64,000 nt of DNA from Candidatus Omnitrophota bacterium. GTDB taxonomy: Bacteria > Omnitrophota > Gorgyraeia > Aquiviventales > Aquiviventaceae. Positions 76-53,432 of the stretch are shown here, piece by piece. The position numbers and the translations under genes are program-made. The notes below the pieces were generated by a model. The model saw only the letters and a list, made by a program, of their open reading frames with translations, did no database searches and was not told the DNA's origin. Numbering within the stretch: position 1 is the first letter of the stretch; the number at the start of each line of letters is the position of its first letter. The stretch is from NCBI GenBank assembly GCA_023247255.1, contig JAHFGV010000005.1, forward strand, positions 6,067 to 70,066, written 5' to 3'.

Positions 76-1071
76 ATGCCTGATCTTCGTGTGAAGATTG
101 GTTCCCTGACGTTACCGAATCCGGTCTTGGTTGCGGCAGGGACCTTTGGTTACGGCCTTGAGTTTACCTCAGCCATCCGCTTGGATCATCTCGGTGCGTT
201 GATTACAAAAACCTTAACCGCAACGCCGCGATCGGGTCATTTGCCCCCCCGTCTTGCCGTTACTCCTTCAGGGATGCTTAACTCTGTTGGGCTGCAGAAC
301 ATTGGACTTGAGGCATTTCTTGAGACGAAGCTTCCACAACTGCGCCGGTATTCGGTGGCAGTGATCGTAAGCGTGTTGGGGGAATCGGCCAAGGAGCTGG
401 CAGAGATGGTCGGACGAATCGATCGTGCCGATGGCGTTTCCGGAGTCGAACTGAATATGTCGTGTCCCAACCTCGAAGAGGGACAGGGGACGGGGGGCGG
501 GGGGCAGGGGGGGGATTCCAGCATTCCCCTGCCCCCTGTCTCGCGCCCCTTGCCCCGTCTTATTGCGCAGGATGCTGAGGCGACGGCTGCGATGGTGCAG
601 GCGGCCCGGGCAAAAACCAGCAAACTTTTGATCGCGAAATTGAGTCCCGACGTCACCGATCTAAGGCCCATCGCGCGAGCGGCCGAGCGGGCAGGGGCCG
701 ATGCCTTGAGCGTGGGGAATACTTTCATCGGGATGAGCCTGGATCCAGAAACCCGTCGGTCCCGTCTGGGTTCCCTCACCGGCGGTTTAAGCGGACCCGC
801 GATTCGTCCGCTTTCACTTTATAGGGTGTGGTATACTGCCCCGGTTGTTCGCATTCCGGTAATCGGTGCAGGGGGTATCGTACAGGCCAAGGATGCCGTT
901 GAGTATTTCCTGGCCGGAGCCAAAGCCGTTGCAGTGGGTACCGCAAACTTTGTGCGACCGGATGCCGCCAGGCAAATCGTCCACGGTATCGAGCGCTACA
1001 TGATTCGACACAAACTAAGCGCCATACACGAACTTTATGGAGCCATCGATTTCCATTCCCCATGGCCGTAA
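76..1071 (+). CDS. pyrD: dihydroorotate dehydrogenase, class 1 catalytic subunit
   Basis: 331-aa track ORF with motifs AAGTFGYG, ELNMSCPN, GGLSGPAIRP and VIGAGGI. Carries an extra Gly/Pro-rich loop encoded by the repeat at 475-560. Confidence 0.85.
   Translation: MPDLRVKIGSLTLPNPVLVAAGTFGYGLEFTSAIRLDHLGALITKTLTATPRSGHLPPRLAVTPSGMLNSVGLQNIGLEAFLETKLPQLRRYSVAVIVSVLGESAKELAEMVGRIDRADGVSGVELNMSCPNLEEGQGTGGGGQGGDSSIPLPPVSRPLPRLIAQDAEATAAMVQAARAKTSKLLIAKLSPDVTDLRPIARAAERAGADALSVGNTFIGMSLDPETRRSRLGSLTGGLSGPAIRPLSLYRVWYTAPVVRIPVIGAGGIVQAKDAVEYFLAGAKAVAVGTANFVRPDAARQIVHGIERYMIRHKLSAIHELYGAIDFHSPWP
475..560. repeat. GC-rich palindromic element, copy P, in frame inside pyrD
   Basis: G-run arm followed by C-run arm. 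Perfect 11-bp stem GGGGGCAGGGG (500-510) / CCCCTGCCCCC (526-536). C-arm 524-556 aligns by eye at ~85% with the C-arm at 15771-15803. Confidence 0.6.
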
Positions 1072-2422: not shown

Positions 2423-2700
2423 TAATGAGGATTGTGTCCTATTCCAAGAGAAGTAATGAGGATTGTGTCATGTTTCATGAGTCATGTGTCATGAGAGACT
2501 GTTTCATGTGTTATGTGTCATGAAAAAAGCAGAAAATAAACAGGCATCTCAAGCACGGCCAAAGTACGCCTTTTGCTTTCCATGACTCATGACACATAAA
2601 ACATGAAACATGACACAGACGTGAGTACTGGAGCTTAGAACCGTGACTCATGAAACAGACGTGAGCACTGCCACTAACCGCGATGCATTTTGAAAACCCT
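2409..2700. repeat. CATG-rich tandem plus inverted repeat element
   Basis: A ~30-nt tandem duplication spans the pyrE stop (2409-2440 / 2443-2471). A GTCATG-rich arm (2466-2523) is complementary to a CATGAC-rich arm (2579-2627). The terminal 55 nt (2645-2699) recur at 40158-40213. Confidence 0.7.
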
Positions 2701-3247: not shown

Positions 3248-3288
3248 CAGGTTACAGGAAAATGCCCTGTTTGCTCAAAGCTAACAAT

Positions 3289-3549
3289 GGGGGGAACGGG
3301 GTGGGAGACGTGGGGCGTGGGAGAACAGATTACAAGAGATAAAAAGTCCTACAACCGGTTTTAAAAAAGGGTTCTTCTGGTTTTGCAGTGGGTAAAAGGA
3401 GCAACACTTCCCTCTCCCAAAGGGAGAGGGAGAAGGGCATGCCCATATATCCCGGAAGCGCCTAAAAAAGAACGGGCGATGTCTAGCTTTCAAGATTTAT
3501 GGAGTGCTATTCGCACTTCCCTCGCCCCCCGCCCCGTTCCCTTTACCCC
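3289..3549. repeat. GC-rich element, copy K, with G-run/C-run terminal inverted repeats
   Basis: G-arm 3289-3328 (runs G6,G4,G3,G4,G3) and C-arm 3514-3549 are about 21/26 complementary. Internal perfect hairpin CCCTCTCCC-AAA-GGGAGAGGG (3410-3430). Confidence 0.55.
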
Positions 3550-3603
3550 GGATGCGGGTTTTTCAGCAGTCTGCTGATAGCAAGGATATTGAAACGTAAA
3601 CTC

Positions 3604-5816: not shown

Positions 5817-5826
5817 ATTCCGCAGT

Positions 5827-6325
5827 TTTTAGCAGGATGCTAAAAGACCCACGGGATGCTAGAGTGCCTAACATAATGATCGCATGGTCGCGCTGGGCGT
5901 AATTGCTTCGATGCGCAAGACGCCAGGAGGAAGCCGTACTGATCCATAGAAGTACGGTGACGACGAGCAACGCAGCGCGGCGAAGCAATTCCGCCCAGCC
6001 CTTAGGGTTGCACTGAAAGATGGCCATCTGCTGCGTCGTTCCTCCTCGGCGTAGCGCTCCTTCGGCTACGCCTTCGTCGTCACTCCTTGCATCTGGGCCA
6101 TCTTTCAGTGCAACGCGGCCATGTGCTCATTATGTTAGGCACTCTTAGGCTGCTCAAAAAGGTGCGAGATGCAAGGCGCAGCTCGATTCGGCTGAGTCCT
6201 TTGACTATCGCTCAGGACTCAGCCCTGAGCAACGTCGAAGGGCTGAGGAGGCGCGTACTTTCAAGTACGCTGACGAAGCCGTCAGGCATACAACGCAGCA
6301 GATGTGTCTTTTTCAGCAGCCTGCT
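5827..6325. repeat. multi-hairpin structured spacer (nested inverted repeats)
   Basis: Outer inverted repeat 5861-5893 / 6117-6149, containing an 18-nt perfect core. Inner inverted repeats 5894-5911/5982-5999 (17/18) and 6009-6026/6097-6114 (18/18). Further hairpins lie at 6193-6286. The spacer is bounded by the similar motifs TTTTTAGCAGGATGCT (5827) and TTTTTCAGCAGCCTGCT (6309). Confidence 0.6.
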
Positions 6326-6340
6326 TAGGGAGATGCGCAC

Positions 6341-11260: not shown

Positions 11261-11773
11261 ATGCCTCCTATTCTGCAACTGGACGTCCAGCAGATTATTT
11301 CACAGGCCATCAGCTTTCTAATCCTGCTGTGGGTGCTTAAGCGTTTTGCCTGGCGTCCGCTGCTTTCGATGCTCGATCAGCGTCGGGAGCGTATCGATCA
11401 GGACTTAGCGCAGGCGGCGGCCAAGAAAGAAGAGCTGACGCGCCTTGAGGAAGACTACCGCAAGCGCTTGGCGGCGATCGACCAGGAAGCCCGGCTAAAG
11501 ATTCAGGAAGCTGTTCAGGAAGGCAAACAGGTGGCTATGGAGATTCAAGGACAGGCGCGTGTTGCGGCTCAAAACATCCTGGCGAAAGCCCAGGAAACGG
11601 TAGAGATGGAACTCTCCAAGGCTAAAGTTACATTGAGGGATCAAGTGGTTGAGATGACTTTAGAGGCGCTCGAACGCATGCTGCGCAAAAAACTCGACGC
11701 CCAGACGGATCGTCTGCTCATCGAAGCGTCCCTCGAAGAGCTGGAGCAGCAACAATCCACGAAGACTTCGTGA
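11261..11773 (+). CDS. atpF: F0 ATP synthase subunit b
   Basis: 170 aa: an N-terminal TM helix followed by a long charged helix. Operon position fits. Confidence 0.8.
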   Translation: MPPILQLDVQQIISQAISFLILLWVLKRFAWRPLLSMLDQRRERIDQDLAQAAAKKEELTRLEEDYRKRLAAIDQEARLKIQEAVQEGKQVAMEIQGQARVAAQNILAKAQETVEMELSKAKVTLRDQVVEMTLEALERMLRKKLDAQTDRLLIEASLEELEQQQSTKTS

Positions 11774-11882
11774 ATTGCCGATTTTCGATTTTGGGCTGAG
11801 AGAATTTTCGATTGTAGATTTTAGATTGTCGATTGGAAAACACGACAAATCGACAATCGAAAATTGACAATCGACGATTCGT
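11772..11882. repeat. CGATTGTCGATT-unit palindromic element, copy A
   Basis: Starts at the atpF stop. The arms TAGATTGTCGATT and AATCGACAATCGA are complementary. Related to copy B at 19280-19363. Confidence 0.6.
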
Positions 11883-11940
11883 TGGGCCTTAAGCCAAAAG
11901 CCTTGAGCAAACAGATATTTTCCGTAGCCTGCTAGTACGA

Positions 11941-12489
11941 ATGGTAATGAATCCCATCGCGAGTCGCTACGCCGAAGCCCTCTTAGAAGTATCCAAGGAT
12001 GCAGATGCGGTTGATGAGACGCTGGGGCAACTCCTCATCATCCGCCAGGCGCTTCAGGAACATCCCGATGCTCGGGGGCTGTTCTACAATCCTGACGTGA
12101 CGCCCAAGGAGAAAGTGGCGGTGTTGGATCGATCGGTGCAAGGTCAATGGACGGGCTTAGTGCGTTCCTTCATCCAAGTGGTCGCTTCCTTTAACCGCGC
12201 CGAATGCCTCGATGAGATCATTGAGGCTTTTGGGCAAGCGGTGGATGCTGCGCAGGGACGTCTGCGAGTCACCGTTCGCTCAGCGTCCGCGATTTCCGAA
12301 GAACTCCTGGAACGTTTGCGCCTGAGCTTGGCTAAGCGGGAAGGCAAGGAGATTCTCCTGCGCAGGGAACTGGACGCGCAGCTTATCGGAGGCTTGCAGA
12401 TCGTTTTGGATCATCGCGTCATCGATGGTTCGCTGCGTCGGCAGTTGACGGAGTTGCGCCAGCGTCTGCGTCGTGTGAGGGTCCACTAA
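11941..12489 (+). CDS. atpH: F1 ATP synthase subunit delta
   Basis: 182 aa with an OSCP-like N-terminus ([11 protein letters not shown]). Operon position fits. Confidence 0.8.
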
Positions 12490-15093: not shown

Positions 15094-15131
15094 TTTTTAT
15101 GGATTATCCAGAAGAAAGGAGGTGCGGTACG

Positions 15132-15392
15132 ATGACCAAGGGACTGGTGGCGCCGATATCCTCCAAGGGGCAGGTGACACTCCCAAAAGGTGTGCGCGAG
15201 CTCCTTCACGTAGAGCGTGGCGACTATATCCGCTTTGAGCCAAAGGTTGACGGAGTATGGGTCACAAAAATCCGGCTTGAGCCAGAGGGGTTCTCTGAGA
15301 ATGAGTGGAAGACCCTTGAGCGTTTAGCGCGTCAGAAAGGTAAGCGATACACCGATGCAAAGGCCTTTCTCAAAGATCTCGAAGCGCTCTGA
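15132..15392 (+). CDS. AbrB/SpoVT-family antitoxin
   Basis: ATG 15132 follows AAGGAGG. SpoVT/AbrB looped-hinge motif SSKGQVTLPKGVRELL. Confidence 0.7.
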   Translation: MTKGLVAPISSKGQVTLPKGVRELLHVERGDYIRFEPKVDGVWVTKIRLEPEGFSENEWKTLERLARQKGKRYTDAKAFLKDLEAL

Positions 15393-15401
15393 TGCGTTCT
15401 G

Positions 15402-15680
15402 ATGCGTTATGAGCGCAAGCCATCCTTTAGCCGGTCTCTGCGACGTTTGCCCCCTGATCGGAAGGTACGCATCAAAGATGCGATTCGCAACCTTGTGATC
15501 TTCCTCGAAACCAAACAGCAGCCGCATGGGCTTGGCTTAAAACGTCTGCGAGCAGACTACTGGCAGGTGCGGGCAGGATTGGGGGATCGGGTTATCTTCC
15601 GACTGGTCGATGACCTCATTGAGTTTGTGATTGTTGGGAGTCATGATGAGATCCAACGGTTTCTACGTCATTCCGTTTGA
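15402..15680 (+). CDS. RelE/ParE-superfamily toxin
   Basis: 92 aa with YWQVRAGLGDRVIFRLVDDLIEFVIVGSHDE, which fits the RelE/ParE fold pattern. Paired with the upstream antitoxin. Confidence 0.6.
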   Translation: MRYERKPSFSRSLRRLPPDRKVRIKDAIRNLVIFLETKQQPHGLGLKRLRADYWQVRAGLGDRVIFRLVDDLIEFVIVGSHDEIQRFLRHSV

Positions 15681-15715: not shown

Positions 15716-17239
<1,524 letters not shown>

Positions 17240-19139: not shown

Positions 19140-19213
19140 GGGCGGTTAGCTCAGTTGGTTAGAGCGTCTGATTTACATTCAGAAGGTCGGGGGTTCGAGT
19201 CCTCCACCGCCCA
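19140..19213 (+). tRNA. tRNA-Val (anticodon TAC)
   Basis: Cloverleaf folded by hand: acceptor GGGCGGT/ACCGCCC, D-arm GCTC..GAGC, anticodon loop TTTACAT, T-loop TTCGAGT. Confidence 0.9.
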
Positions 19214-19279: not shown

Positions 19280-19363
19280 GGGAATTGTCGATTGACGATT
19301 GTCGATTTTTGATTGAACGGCCGTCTTCCAATCGACAATCCAAAATCGACAATCGAAAATTCC
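19280..19363. repeat. CGATTGTCGATT-unit palindromic element, copy B
   Basis: Ends GGGAATTGTCGATT / AATCGAAAATTCCC are 13/14 complementary. Shares AATCGACAATCGAAAATT with copy A. Confidence 0.6.
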
Positions 19364-20940: not shown

Positions 20941-21106
20941 GGAGGCGCAGCTCAATGGGTTAGGCGTAGCCCCCGCAGCTTTGATCTGTCCCTAGAAATC
21001 GCGAAGCGATTTCAGGGATCAAATCCGAAATGCTTTGCATTCCATGGGACGAAGCAAATCAGTGGGAGGTGGCGGCCTATCGAGCCGTAGGTTGCGGGTT
21101 AGAGCC
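20941..21106 (+). pseudogene. disrupted tRNA-Asp paralogue
   Basis: The 5' part 20941-20963 matches the tRNA-Asp 5' half (3 mismatches). About 100 nt of hairpin-rich insert follows. 21069-21106 matches 23793-23830 (2 mismatches; anticodon becomes ATC). The T-arm and acceptor 3' side are missing. Confidence 0.6.
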
Positions 21107-21126: not shown

Positions 21127-22193
21127 TAGATCTGTTGCACAATTGCCCAATTTGTAGCATCCTATCCTTAACGCAGAGGAGGAACAAAGGCATGCTACGA
21201 TTTGCCAAACTCGTGCACCACCCGAGGAAACTCTACAGAATGACGGGACTTACGCTTGACCAGTTCCAGACGCTGACGAATCGGCTCACCCCGCTGTGGG
21301 AGCAAGCGGAACGGATGTGCCTCTCGCAGCGCAAGCGAAAGCCACGCCATCGGGAAAGAGTACCAAGTACAAGCTCTCCACGATGGCGGACAAACTCCTG
21401 TGCGTGCTCAGCTTCTACCGCTTCTACCTCTACCTTTGAGCTGCTCGGCTATCTCGTCGGCCTGGATGCCAGCAATATCTGTCGGCTAAAGCCTCGGCTC
21501 GAACCGCTCATTGAGCAGGCAGCCGATCCAAGCCTGGGGCTGTCGCTCCGCCGTCGGCTCCCGCCCGGCGTCAAGAGAATCGGCACCTGGGAGGAACTCG
21601 TGGAGCGCTGTCCGGACTTCGCAGACGTGGTCACTGATGCGACCAAGCAGGCACGACTCCGTCCACCGCGACGCACCCAGCGGCGCTGGTACTCCGGCAA
21701 ACGTAAGCGCCACACACTCAAGACGCAGTTGAGCATCACTCGGCAGAGTGGCCGGATCCTCCATATCAGTTCAACCGTCCCGGGCCGTGTCCATGACTAC
21801 GCGCTCTTGAAGCGGACGCGACTGGACGAACGGCTGCCGCCGAAGACGCGCCTCACCCTGGATCGGGGGTATGATGGTGCCATGACGGACTATCCGACTC
21901 CCGCTATCGCGCTGCCCGTCAAGCGTCGAGGCAACCACCAGGTCCTGACGCGCTCGGAGCGGGCATTCAACCGCCTCCAGGCGCGGCAGCGGATCATCGT
22001 GGAGCATGTCCCAAGTTGCGTGAAGAAGTACCAGCTCCTCGCGCAGGTCTACCGCCACCGGATCGCGGACTACAACCACCGCTTTCGCAACATTGCGGCC
22101 TTGACGAACTTCCGCCTAACGCCGACGGTGACGTAACCGAACCCGGACGCGCGGAGCCTTCATCGTGTCAAGGGCAACTGCGCAATAGGTCTA
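21127..22193 (+). mobile_element. IS element (IS5/Harbinger-type DDE_Tnp_4 transposase)
   Basis: Imperfect terminal inverted repeats: TAGATCTGTTGCACAATTGCCC (21127-21148) against the reverse complement of 22172-22193 (about 17/21). One transposase ORF lies inside. Confidence 0.7.
21192..22136 (+). pseudogene. DDE_Tnp_4 transposase with compensating frameshifts
   Basis: ATG 21192 follows GAGGAGG. Core motifs DATKQARLRP, YSGKRKRHTLK, PGRVHDY and DRGYDG are present. The family-typical segment KYKLSTMADKLLCVLSFYRFYL is readable only in the +2 frame between about 21350 and 21431. Confidence 0.6.
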
Positions 22194-23768: not shown

Positions 23769-23842
23769 GGGGGCGTAGCTCAATTGGTTAGAGTGGCGGC
23801 CTGTCGAGCCGTAGGTTGCGGGTTCGAGCCCCGTCGCCCCCG
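23769..23842 (+). tRNA. tRNA-Asp (anticodon GTC)
   Basis: Acceptor GGGGGCG/CGCCCCC, D-arm GCTC..GAGT, anticodon loop CTGTCGA, T-loop TTCGAGC. Confidence 0.9.
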
Positions 23843-40157: not shown

Positions 40158-40213
40158 GACTCATGAAACAGACGTGAGCACTGCCACTAACCTCGATGCA
40201 TTTTGTAAAACCC
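40158..40213 (+). repeat. 55-nt satellite copy of the 2645-2699 element end
   Basis: GACTCATGAAACAGACGTGAGCACTGCCACTAACC is identical in both copies. CGATGCATTTTG..AAAACCC follows with 2 differences. Confidence 0.8.
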
Positions 40214-42250
40214 CAGTTACGACTGACGCCTTCCAAGTCTTCTTGCACCTGCTGTAGTGAATCCATCTGCTGCAGCGAATCTCGCGAAAGGTTGACAGGC
40301 TTGTCTGGCCAGCGTCACACGCCGAGCCTCATCGTAACCGGCAACCCCAACGTCGGGAAAAGCGTCATCTTCCAGCTCCTCACCGGCCGCTACGCCACCG
40401 TGTCGAACTATCCGGGCACCACGGTTGCAGTTACCCGAGGATCGGCTTCGTTAGACGGCCGGGTGGTTCGCGTCTACGACACGCCAGGAATCAATAGCTT
40501 GTTCGCCGCCTCAGAAGATGAGCTGGTCGCACGCGATCTGCTGCTGGGTGAACGAACCACCGTGGTGCAGGTTAGCGATGCCAAGAACCTGCTACGTGCC
40601 CTCACACTGACCTTGGAACTGGCTGAAGCTGGACTTCCATCCGTCCTGGATCTGAACATGATGGACGAAGCCAGGGAACGTCGAATCAGCATTGATACGA
40701 AGAAGCTCTCAGGGTTACTTGGGATCTCGGTTGTGCCGACCATTGCAACGCAGCGGTGGGGTATCGAGCGGTTGCGTCGAGTGATCCTGCAGGCACAGCA
40801 GGCTCGGGTTGGCGTTTGCTACCCCAAAGTGATTGAAGATGCCATTGCCAAGATGGTGGAGGTCCTACCAAAGACGCTGGGCGTACGGAAAGCCCTGGCG
40901 TTGTTCTGGCTTGCTGGGGATCGGAACATCATCGAGCAGCTCAAGAAGCAATTCGACCCATCAATCATCGAGGCGCTGACGGCAATCGCTGCGCAGGCTC
41001 AAGAACAGACCTCTGGCCCATTAGGGTTGCTGATCAGTCAAGCCCGACTCCGCGAGGCCGAGCGACTCGTCAAGCAGGTGATGACGACTGCACCTCTGGA
41101 GCGCCAGCGGTGGTTTTACCGCCTGGGTGATTGGGCGATGCACCCGGTTTGGGGGGTGCCCATCCTCGTTGGCGTCCTGGTCATGATGTACTTCCTCGTC
41201 GGAAATCTCGCAGCTCAGCGTGGCGTAGATTTCCTAGAAGACGTGGTCTTTGGGCGCTACCTCACCCCAGTCTTTCAGTGGGTTGTTCAAGGGGCGATCC
41301 CTTGGGGGTGGCTCAAGGCGCTCTTCATCGGTGAGTACGGCCTGCTGACGATGGCTCTGCCCTACGCTTTTGCGATCATCCTGCCCATCGTGGGGATGTT
41401 CTTTCTCTGCTTCGGATTGCTTGAGGATGTGGGCTACCTTCCTCGACTAGCCGTGATGGCCAATCGCTTTTGTCGGCTCCTGGGTCTCAACGGCAAGGCG
41501 GTGCTCCCACTCGTGCTGGGGTTGGGATGCGACACAATGGCCACGATGACCGCCCGCATCCTCGACTCGGATCGGGATCGGATCATCACAACGCTCTTGT
41601 TGGCACTCGGCATCCCTTGTTCCGCTCAACTGGGCGTCATCCTAGCGATGCTGGCGGGCCGCCCGCCGTTGGCCCTGGGGATTTGGCTTGGCGTGTTACT
41701 CATGGTGATCATTGTGGTTGGTCAAGCCGCGTCAAGAATCCTGCCGGGCGAGGAGAGCCCGTTTCTCTACGAGATCCCACCGCTTCGCACGCCGAAGCTG
41801 TCGAATGTGCTGATCAAGACGCTGGGTCGCATCGAGTGGTATGTGAAAGAAGCCGTCCCGCTGTTCTTCCTGGGAACCCTGGTGTTATTCCTCCTCGATG
41901 TGACAGGAGCCCTGGCGGTCTTCGAGCGAATCGGGACCCCGCTCATTGTCTCGTGGCTCGGGCTGCCAGCCAAAGCGACCAGTGCATTTCTGGTGGGATT
42001 TCTCCGACGGGATTTTGGTGCGGCCGGGCTCTTCGCGCTTCAGCGAAACGGAATGTTATCTGGAGTCCAGACCGTCGTCAGCCTCGTTACCATCACGCTG
42101 TTTGTCCCCTGCATCGCCCAGTACTTCATGATGGTCAAAGAGCGCGGCTGGAAACTCGCAAATCTGATGGCGGGGTTTGTCTTCGGGATGGCGCTGCTTG
42201 TTGGAGGTCTCCTCTTGCGCGTTCTCACCCTGTTGCGAGTTACCCTATGA
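40196..42250 (+). CDS. feoB: ferrous iron transporter FeoB
   Basis: G-domain motifs GNPNVGKS and NYPGTTV, followed by a polytopic permease. The ATG at 40196 lies in the repeat, so the true start is uncertain (TTG near 40293 is possible). Confidence 0.9.
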   Translation: MHFVKPQLRLTPSKSSCTCCSESICCSESRERLTGLSGQRHTPSLIVTGNPNVGKSVIFQLLTGRYATVSNYPGTTVAVTRGSASLDGRVVRVYDTPGINSLFAASEDELVARDLLLGERTTVVQVSDAKNLLRALTLTLELAEAGLPSVLDLNMMDEARERRISIDTKKLSGLLGISVVPTIATQRWGIERLRRVILQAQQARVGVCYPKVIEDAIAKMVEVLPKTLGVRKALALFWLAGDRNIIEQLKKQFDPSIIEALTAIAAQAQEQTSGPLGLLISQARLREAERLVKQVMTTAPLERQRWFYRLGDWAMHPVWGVPILVGVLVMMYFLVGNLAAQRGVDFLEDVVFGRYLTPVFQWVVQGAIPWGWLKALFIGEYGLLTMALPYAFAIILPIVGMFFLCFGLLEDVGYLPRLAVMANRFCRLLGLNGKAVLPLVLGLGCDTMATMTARILDSDRDRIITTLLLALGIPCSAQLGVILAMLAGRPPLALGIWLGVLLMVIIVVGQAASRILPGEESPFLYEIPPLRTPKLSNVLIKTLGRIEWYVKEAVPLFFLGTLVLFLLDVTGALAVFERIGTPLIVSWLGLPAKATSAFLVGFLRRDFGAAGLFALQRNGMLSGVQTVVSLVTITLFVPCIAQYFMMVKERGWKLANLMAGFVFGMALLVGGLLLRVLTLLRVTL

Positions 42251-53182: not shown

Positions 53183-53347
53183 GGTTCTTTGGGGTGTGAT
53201 CGCGTAGGGTACGTGGTGGGATGACAATTCGAAACGACGCTCCGAGTTCAGCGACCTAAGCTCGCGTGATGGCGGGGATGGTCCCTGAACCCCTGTCCCA
53301 CACGCAACGCCGCGTGTAGGACCGGGCCGGGAAGGAAACGACTCGGC

Positions 53348-53432
53348 CTCCTCGTGTTCGGAAAGGAGACGGCAGGCTGGAGTATCGTCAAGCCAGCTTC
53401 TCTTTCCACACGAGGAGCTGGCTTGTTTCGTC
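53348..53432 (+). promoter_or_regulatory. leader RNA with alternative stems (attenuator or riboswitch candidate)
   Basis: Stem CTCCTCGTGT (53348-57) / ACACGAGGAG (53408-17) competes with the terminator-like stem AAGCCAGCT (53390-98) / AGCTGGCTT (53416-24), which is followed by GTTTCGT. Confidence 0.3.

Follow-up and report, generated by a model that had tools for sequence, protein, structure and literature searches.

An in-frame, hypervariable hairpin of inverted heptamer arrays beside the catalytic cysteine of PyrD in Candidatus Omnitrophota

To our knowledge, heptanucleotide repeats, namely the short tandemly repeated repetitive (STRR) sequences and their relatives, have been on record since 1990, with neither a mechanism nor a function assigned to them, and they are regarded as intergenic. 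Repetitive extragenic palindromic (REP) sequences and REPINs are extragenic palindromes of 20-40 nt that carry GTAG or CGTC tags and are associated with RAYT transposases. In cyanobacteria, STRR hairpins, usually composed of 7 bp repeats, lie between co-transcribed genes such as hupS-hupL, and a role in transcript stability has been proposed for them (PMC2670836). In many prokaryotes, heptameric repeats are reported to outnumber all other long simple repeats (summarised in PMC4679880). Those of the GGGNATC and GGGGA(C/T)T type, G-quadruplex repeats of Xanthomonas and Nostoc, show a preference for four units and are under-represented in open reading frames (ORFs) (PMC4692102). Finally, Rickettsia palindromic elements (RPEs) occur both between genes and in frame within unrelated metabolic genes; both their translation and their compatibility with the protein fold are presumed (PMC10969869). 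Here, we focus on a short palindromic cassette located in frame in the pyrD gene of a Candidatus Omnitrophota bacterium, within a 64,000-nucleotide stretch of contig JAHFGV010000005.1 (hereafter, the window). No paper joining Omnitrophica with heptamer repeats was found in the literature that we searched. The reading that we favor, at a probability of roughly 0.55, is that the cassette is a translated STRR-like twin heptamer array hairpin, tolerated in a disordered active-site lid and subject to slippage and templated homogenization. By twin heptamer array we mean a short loop flanked by two inverted arrays, each with about four 7-nt units in tandem.

The ORF at 76-1071 (+) is pyrD, encoding the 331-aa catalytic subunit of a class-1B-type dihydroorotate dehydrogenase. 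PyrD scores 321.9 bits against the model NCBIfam NF005574 (cut-off 269), which places it at the equivalog level, and HMMER matches it to the Lactococcus lactis dihydroorotate dehydrogenase B (DHODB; 1ep1_A) at E=2.8e-66. Cys130, in the SCPN motif, aligns with the catalytic Cys135 of 1ep1_A, and E125, N127, S129, C130, P131, and N132 are invariant across 30 orthologs. Directly after Cys130-Pro-Asn, in the distal part of the active-site lid, comes the cassette: the protein reads ...VELNMSCPN-LEEGQGTGGGGQGGDSSIPLPPVSRPLPR-LIAQD, and its peptide stretch across the cassette region is ...SCPNLEEGQGTGGGGQGGDSSIPLPPVSR. The HMMER match is split at this place, pairing PyrD residues 4-137 and 164-320 with residues 7-142 and 146-302 of the chain, and it leaves 26 PyrD residues unaligned where 1ep1_A has 3. 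Thus, PyrD carries about 23 extra amino acids, beginning three residues past Cys130; an earlier reading of this DNA, made from the sequence only, had put the excess at about 20-25 and was close. An AlphaFold2 model built on 30 orthologs is a confident TIM barrel whose best structural matches are DHODBs (TM 0.80/0.86 against 5ue9_A). Structure prediction had been suggested as a check on the insert, and in the model residues 132-161 have a confidence score (pLDDT) <50, and the insert is accordingly predicted to form a disordered loop.

At the nucleic-acid level, the C-arm of the cassette is a degenerate complement of its G-arm (Table 1). The inverted repeat 480-510 / 526-556 has arms of 31 nt that are 77% complementary and spaced 15 nt apart, and within it the perfect 11-bp core described earlier, 500-510/526-536, is borne out. 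The RNA minimum free energy (MFE) of 472-561 is -64 kcal/mol (z = -4.65 versus dinucleotide shuffles, 0/200 of which fold as well); with DNA parameters, the same segment gives -28.5 kcal/mol (z = -3.1). In a GC-corrected sliding scan, the cassette is the strongest 90-nt fold of the entire 64-kb window (z = -5.4). The G3+N1-7 quadruplex motif that had also been pointed out is indeed present at 480-514, with at least four tracts of three or more Gs placed 1-7 nt apart; a predicted G-quadruplex there would compete with the -64 kcal/mol hairpin. An ENA contig and a Logan contig, from two further assemblies, match the cassette base for base, and so the cassette is not one assembler's quirk. In Rfam 15, the cassette has no match at the gathering score, just far sub-threshold matches to generic miRNA hairpins.

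The same site is occupied across the clade. We considered the 120 best PyrD homologs (60-100% identity, the top one being the window's own protein), the named members of which are Candidatus Omnitrophota metagenome-assembled genomes. These proteins span 303 to 349 aa, and the length differences lie almost wholly in the loop that follows SCPN. When loop length is counted between SCPN and [LM][VI]AQD, and loops of at least 15 aa are called filled, 94 of the 120 are filled (15-50 residues, modes 27 and 30 aa) and 26 are short, six of them at the 6-7-residue baseline. Alignment of the orthologs, another check proposed at the outset, thus defines a hypervariable insert right after SCPN. The cassettes themselves vary too much for an alignment by columns. 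Distant orthologs do not share the loop: Omnitrophota at ~45% identity (L034, L036, L073; L labels denote DNA loci and P labels protein homologs) read SCPNLxKKxLVAQD, and neither they nor L. lactis DHODB carry the insert. The sequence-only reading had proposed a dispersed palindrome embedded in a housekeeping ORF. This idea stands in the sense that the insert is an in-frame nucleic-acid palindrome of a dispersed family and not a conserved protein loop. It falls as far as a private or recent single insertion is concerned, because the loop is filled in 94/120 orthologs and in 10/10 DNA loci.

DNA was obtained for ten orthologous loci. In every one of them, the cassette is a multiple of 3 nt in length and free of stop codons; the majority consist of twin heptamer arrays whose units are specific to a lineage, and seven of the ten pyrD cassettes are folded significantly more stably than their shuffles (z = -2.2 to -9.2). 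Two loci, L140 and L176, were found independently of protein, and both of their cassettes are in frame. (A metagenome scan with the peptide AKLSPDVTD was not clade-specific, and only L128, L140, L146, and L176 from it are relevant.) A conservative protein-only test for back-translatable self-complementarity (P<=0.05), which has low power for Gly/Pro-rich cassettes, picks out at least 35 of the 94 inserts and 10 of 94 control segments. These data bear on whether the cassette reaches the protein at all. Very stable ORF hairpins are a hallmark of bypass elements, and palindromes can mislead assemblers; the cassette could be bypassed or removed, in the manner of yeast mitochondrial byp elements or the T4 gene 60 hop, or it could be an assembly artifact. 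Bypass of that kind, however, entails a broken frame or stops that the ribosome skips, and here all ten DNA cassettes are in frame and open, while all 120 orthologs are contiguous ORFs. Since, in addition, three assemblies agree and well-formed cassettes come from independent samples, we find this explanation scarcely credible.

The cassette could alternatively be a lineage-specific functional protein loop, a lid extension or a site of partner binding, with incidental palindromy. It is found in about 80% of the clade, always beside the catalytic Cys, and a structural optimum could underlie the preference for lengths of 27 and 30 aa. The peptide, however, is nearly unconstrained: insert identity is 0.29-0.38 across all pairs versus 0.25 for shuffled inserts, whatever the flank identity, even at >=90%. 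Unrelated peptides sit on 97%-identical backgrounds, the same DNA units recur in non-coding spacers, the insert is predicted to be disordered, and back-translatable self-complementarity is commoner among inserts than among control segments. We thus hold a functional loop to be very improbable.

Close relatives reveal how quickly the cassette changes. L211 and L212, which come from different samples, are ~97% identical in DNA over 2.5 kb, yet their pyrD cassettes (L211:4512-4604, 93 nt; L212:1217-1285, 69 nt) are almost wholly divergent. The cassette edges are sharp, with CTGCAG (Leu-Gln after SCPN) on one side and ATGGTG (Met-Val of MVAQD) on the other. Between them, the two cassettes remain recognizably homologous: the unit CTCAGGG/CCCNGAG of one corresponds to TTCGGAG/CTCNGAA of the other, the substitutions recur in most units, and two 3'-arm units of L212 are intermediate. 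Substitutions in one arm compensate for those in the other: C-G pairs have become T-A, and G-C pairs A-T. We note that L211 and L212 also diverge in a second small patch, within PilZ, the gene upstream (columns ~240-290 of their alignment). Four protein pairs, P0040/P0048, P0012/P0043, P0011/P0015, and P0001/P0002, likewise combine 96-97% identical flanks with different, unrelated cassettes; P0002 is the closest relative. Filled and empty sites also occur among relatives, at 89% flank identity (a 24-aa loop in P0014, a 6-aa loop in P0095/P0096) and at 87% (P0045 and P0112). Sequence turnover of the cassette outpaces that of the surrounding gene by at least an order of magnitude.

Within a genome, by contrast with between genomes, units are alike. 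The non-pyrD unit nearest to a pyrD unit differs from it by a mean of 0.5 nt when both belong to one genome and by 1.97 nt when the genomes differ (P=0.002 by permutation). In L084, one unit pair, including its single mismatch per unit, occurs in both carB and pyrD, and the pyrD/pyrF junction holds the reverse-complement form of that pair. Such dispersal within genomes, the reverse-complement pair, the filled and empty sites at 87-89% flank identity, and the sharp edges are all what an RPE- or MITE-like element could produce (MITE, miniature inverted-repeat transposable element), that is, a non-autonomous palindrome transposed repeatedly into the same permissive loops by a transposase encoded elsewhere. 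RPEs provide the precedent for in-frame palindromes (PMC10969869). We nevertheless regard mobility of this kind as unlikely. Copies within a genome share their 7-nt units only, and loops and flanks differ. The homologous L211 and L212 cassettes differ through unit-by-unit changes, a pattern that speaks against replacement by a foreign copy, and the same few sites are filled in every genome sampled. By-eye inspection of the window's cassette flanks and of the L211/L212 edges revealed no direct repeat or target-site duplication, and at the latter no terminal inverted repeats beyond the arrays. Finally, no transposase is linked to the cassette, the only one in the window, the DDE_Tnp_4 ORF at 21135-22136, being that of an ordinary insertion sequence.

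Arrays of this type extend well beyond pyrD. Period-7 arrays number 25 per 100 kb in the clade loci versus 1.6 per 100 kb in pyrD loci of other phyla, a difference of ~16x; the latter comprise 2.07 Mb of pyrD-centered loci from a contig scan with a PyrD alignment (<=48% identity among the matches listed). In the window and six related loci, periods 4-6 and 8-11 show no excess, and 7 is the only enriched short period. The syntenic cluster of the clade is carA..carB-PilZ-pyrD-pyrF-pyrE-nuoJKLMN-atp. Within it, seven of seven genomes have a twin heptamer array in frame at the same fixed position of carB, with a different unit in each; L081, the window's own genome, carries its copy upstream of the window. 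In carA, a fixed site is filled in 5/6 genomes. Arrays at the pyrF N-terminus or the pyrD/pyrF junction occur in 3/7, and further twin arrays occupy the nuoJ/K, K/L, L/M, and nuoN/atp spacers. The only genes seen with a mid-gene cassette were carA, carB, and pyrD, to which the pyrF N-terminus can be added; single arrays at gene ends or junctions aside, none was seen within nuo, atp, or Mo-cofactor genes, nor in the window's other ~55 genes. Two clade Mo-cofactor loci (36 kb total) hold just four single arrays, located in spacers, gene junctions, or a gene 3' end. As a non-pyrimidine control, MoeA orthologs have no comparable insert, a handful carrying unrelated short inserts. Nearly all twin arrays in the window, L083-L085, and L206-L208 have the purine/G-rich arm 5' and the pyrimidine/C-rich arm 3', and the C-arm-first type was not seen. 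This polarity is the same on either strand and is thus a real property of the array class.

Heptamer arrays, some as inverted pairs, also appear in pyrD regions of other lineages (L075:6288-6408; L025:3493-3530; L034:490-587; L060:6502-6529; L059:10922-11043). Their hosts are Acidobacteriota (unit TTGGTCA, which we take to be the cyanobacterial STRR2 unit), Nitrospira (AGAAGTC, as in L084), distant Omnitrophota (CATGTGT, as in window 2464-2493), Sumerlaeota, and Desulfuromonadales. In these other phyla, arrays are not significantly nearer pyrD (6 observed vs 3.1 expected, P=0.07). Exact heptamer sharing across phyla amounts to 3 observed vs 0.9 expected (P about 0.06), and we do not take it as horizontal spread.

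The window itself contains related hairpins (Table 1), of which there are about eight in its first 20 kb and very few in the remaining 44 kb. Of two intergenic relatives that the sequence-only reading had matched to the cassette by eye, the one at 15771-15803 receives modest statistical support on formal alignment to the C-arm (P about 0.012; Smith-Waterman score 33 vs 21.6 +/- 3.7 for dinucleotide-shuffled arms), at an identity of ~81% over 32 columns rather than ~85%. The two have the irregular core CCCYTGTCTCNCNCCCC in common, and the G-arm is 78% complementary to 15774-15805. The second, 3514-3549 (region 3505-3550), resembles the cassette weakly (C-arm, P=0.22; G-arm, P=0.03). In the GC-corrected scan, every strong hairpin of the window lies within the 0-20 kb pyr-nuo-atp cluster. 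Strong folds at 19171 and 53341 were rejected as array hairpins, being a tRNA and a molybdenum cofactor (Moco) riboswitch, respectively. The tRNA (19140-19213) adjoins the heptamer hairpin at 19284-19362, and the riboswitch (53228-53385) is upstream of Mo-cofactor genes.

Table 1. Coordinates and repeat units of the pyrD cassette, its relatives in the window, and arrays at related loci (positions without a locus prefix are those of the window)
Feature	Position	Strand	Details
ELNMSCPN motif with catalytic Cys130	448-471	+	directly upstream of cassette; aligns to IELNISCPN, L. lactis DHODB residues 129-137
Variable in-frame cassette	472-558	+	87 nt, 29 aa (LEEGQGTGGGGQGGDSSIPLPPVSRPLPR); baseline loop of insert-free orthologs, 5-6 aa
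5' G-arm	478-514	+	~five degenerate GGGGNNN-type heptamers: GGGACAG GGGACGG GGGGCGG GGGGCAG GGGGGGG; lag-7 autocorrelation
Hairpin loop (ATTCCAGCATT)	515-525	+	from RNA fold
3' C-arm	526-556	+	degenerate heptamers CCCCTGC CCCCTGT CTCGCGC CCCTTGC CCC; CCCCTGTCTC core common with 15778-15794
pyrE-nuoJ spacer	2452-2629	+	inverted heptamer arrays, other unit: CATGTGT / CATGAAA type
nuoJ-nuoK spacer	3289-3549	+	G-rich arm 3289-3322, C-rich arm 3511-3549, 188 nt apart, inner hairpin; looser relative of pyrD element
atp-cluster spacer between ORFs 11261-11773 and 11941-12489	11783-11899	+	inverted heptamer arrays, unit AATCGAC; fold z = -4.6
Intergenic G-rich/C-rich hairpin, same type as pyrD cassette	15723-15805	+	directly upstream of atpD; RNA MFE -45.4 kcal/mol, z = -3.1
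Second AATCGAC-type heptamer hairpin	19284-19362	+	one arm 93% complementary to 11802-11841
L083 pyrD cassette units			GGGGCAN / CGTGCCC
L084 pyrD cassette units			GGCTCAA / CCTTCAG
L085 pyrD cassette units			GCGGATT / AATCCGC
L206 pyrD cassette unit			CACGCCC
L207 pyrD cassette units			GGCNCAA / CCTTGNA
L211 pyrD cassette units			CTCAGGG / CCCNGAG
carB arrays	L081:1633-1722; L083:7988-8083; L084:7918-8001; L085:7431-7502; L206:7642-7721; L207:6949-7011; L208:7994-8064		

Several observations concern the surroundings of these hairpins. The nuoJ-nuoK spacer (3248-3603, about 250-350 nt) and the nuoL-nuoM spacer (5817-6340, about 525 nt) are unusually long, and in relatives the genes flanking them overlap or abut. 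Both are filled with nested inverted repeats (5861-5895/6111-6145 and 6007-6025/6096-6114). A 59-nt repeat, 93% identical between its copies, lies just 5' of nuoJ (2645-2703) and just 5' of feoB (40158-40216), with CATGAAA-type heptamers ahead of each copy; the two copies may represent a common promoter or leader. Between atpG and atpD, within the ATP synthase operon and ahead of the G/C-type hairpin, are two small ORFs, 15099-15392 (97 aa) and 15402-15680 (92 aa), whose size and pairing suggest a putative toxin-antitoxin pair. Farther along, a 38-nt copy (21069-21106, 95%) of the 3' part of a tRNA (23793-23830) lies 2.7 kb upstream of the intact tRNA (23769-23842). The fragment and the intact tRNA bracket the DDE_Tnp_4 transposase ORF, and the region looks like an integrated element with att-like repeats.

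The distribution of the hairpins raises the possibility that selection maintains the RNA or DNA structure itself, either as a CTP/UTP-sensitive pause or attenuation site in pyrimidine genes, with a purine-rich 5' arm and a pyrimidine-rich 3' arm, or as a hairpin that stabilizes or processes the mRNA of a very long operon. A hairpin is retained at its site although nearly all of the sequence has turned over, and the unit changes are compensatory. The apparent restriction of mid-gene cassettes to pyrimidine genes hints at such selection, and MoeA orthologs lack such an insert. Confinement of the window's strong hairpins to the pyr-nuo-atp cluster and the transcript-stability role proposed for STRR hairpins (PMC2670836) point in the same direction. 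Other features, however, make selection for structure improbable in our view. Per-unit mismatches are not wobble-compatible, the stem is decayed or lost in L212 (z = -1.4) and L140 (z = -1.0), and 26/120 orthologs are short-looped. Stems in the orthologs have no following U-tract, and on this ground an intrinsic terminator was rejected. Enrichment in pyrimidine genes may be a bias of pyrD-centered sampling, and the array-pyrD association in other phyla is, as noted above, non-significant.

We return to the reading that we favor, a translated STRR-like hairpin tolerated in the lid. The notion is that the cassette would be translated as a disordered lid extension, Gly/Gln-rich and then Pro-rich, and that selection on PyrD would demand only frame retention and the absence of stops, purging frameshift and stop variants. 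The sequence of the cassette would be driven at the DNA level. Specifically, replication slippage in a 7-nt array could spread a variant unit through one arm, templated copying between arms could keep the arms complementary, and templated copying between loci could keep the copies of one genome alike. As RNA, the hairpins may lend stability to the long transcript or punctuate it, a role already proposed for hairpins of the STRR and REP types. The cassette probably has either no effect on the enzyme or a mild cost.

Several considerations weigh against this reading. We infer translation from the kept frame and the absent stops, and slippage and templating from patterns in the sequences. Most loci were retrieved through intact proteins, a route by which frame-disrupted alleles would escape. 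The compensatory unit changes between L211 and L212 could also reflect selection for structure. Periodic mismatches, together with decayed arms in L212, L140, L208, and the L085 carA cassette, show that the helix is not strictly maintained. Because sampling was centered on the pyrD neighborhood, we treat the pyrimidine-gene bias as unexplained, not as established. Within the window alone, moreover, likeness of the cassette to the intergenic copies is only modestly above that expected from composition, and comparison among genomes offers the stronger support for a dispersed family. That a hairpin endures at one position while its sequence turns over completely would be compatible with a structural role or with mechanistic coupling. 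We speculate, as a long shot, that a dedicated, hitherto undescribed process writes and homogenizes inverted heptamer arrays at fixed sites, including sites inside essential genes, by hairpin-templated copying or conversion or as a new kind of tiny mobile DNA, and that the pyrimidine-gene cassettes are nucleotide-responsive control points. If so, this lineage would provide a handle on the STRR-type heptamers of cyanobacteria and other phyla.

What is new relative to intergenic heptamer repeats is an STRR-like heptamer hairpin that lies inside the ORFs of essential enzymes, at sites fixed clade-wide, and that is hypervariable. The cassette offers a natural test of the amount of disorder that an active-site lid can tolerate, and strain pairs with 97%-identical flanks make a clean system in which to measure concerted evolution of micro-repeats. 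A caution follows for Omnitrophota protein annotation and phylogenetics: because in-frame cassettes are hypervariable, they inflate the apparent divergence of Omnitrophota proteins.

Comparison with known systems places the cassette nearest to the cyanobacterial repeats. MITEs are recognized by terminal inverted repeats together with a target-site duplication, and by-eye inspection of the cassette showed no such combination. REPs and REPINs are, like the elements here, short and dispersed, evolve in concert within a genome, and often lie inside operons; they differ in being extragenic, and the elements described here are periodic arrays. RPEs share with the pyrD cassette the placement of a palindromic repeat in frame in a metabolic gene, and the sequence-only reading had drawn that parallel. 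The architecture, however, is instead one of inverted 7-nt arrays, as in the cyanobacterial STRR hairpins. RPEs are about 150 bp long, conserved in sequence and in the peptide that they encode, and non-periodic, whereas the cassettes are 60-105 nt long, hypervariable, and built from 7-nt units; also unlike the situation with RPEs, the cassette site is filled across the whole clade. The GGGNATC-type repeats of Xanthomonas and Nostoc and the TAACTGA repeats of Beggiatoaceae have the same 7-nt period, about four units, and a location near ORF ends in operons (PMC4692102; PMC4679880). G-rich heptamer variants fit the G-quadruplex pattern both in those heptameric repeats and here. Those repeats are single direct arrays, mostly non-coding, whereas the arrays here form inverted pairs within ORFs.

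STRR hairpins, like the array hairpins described here, consist of tandem 7-nt units, few per array, in inverted pairs (PMC2670836; PMC2408588). STRRs occur in many copies per genome. They lie between co-transcribed genes as hairpins of 7 bp repeats, and the window's intergenic copies resemble them closely in this. The hosts differ, filamentous or heterocystous cyanobacteria in the one case and Candidatus Omnitrophota in the other. The two coincide even in one unit, ATTGCGA of the Nostoc STRRs and the pyrD unit of L085 (PMC2408588). Finally, STRRs are non-coding, whereas the pyrD copy is set in frame inside a gene, at a conserved site of an essential enzyme.

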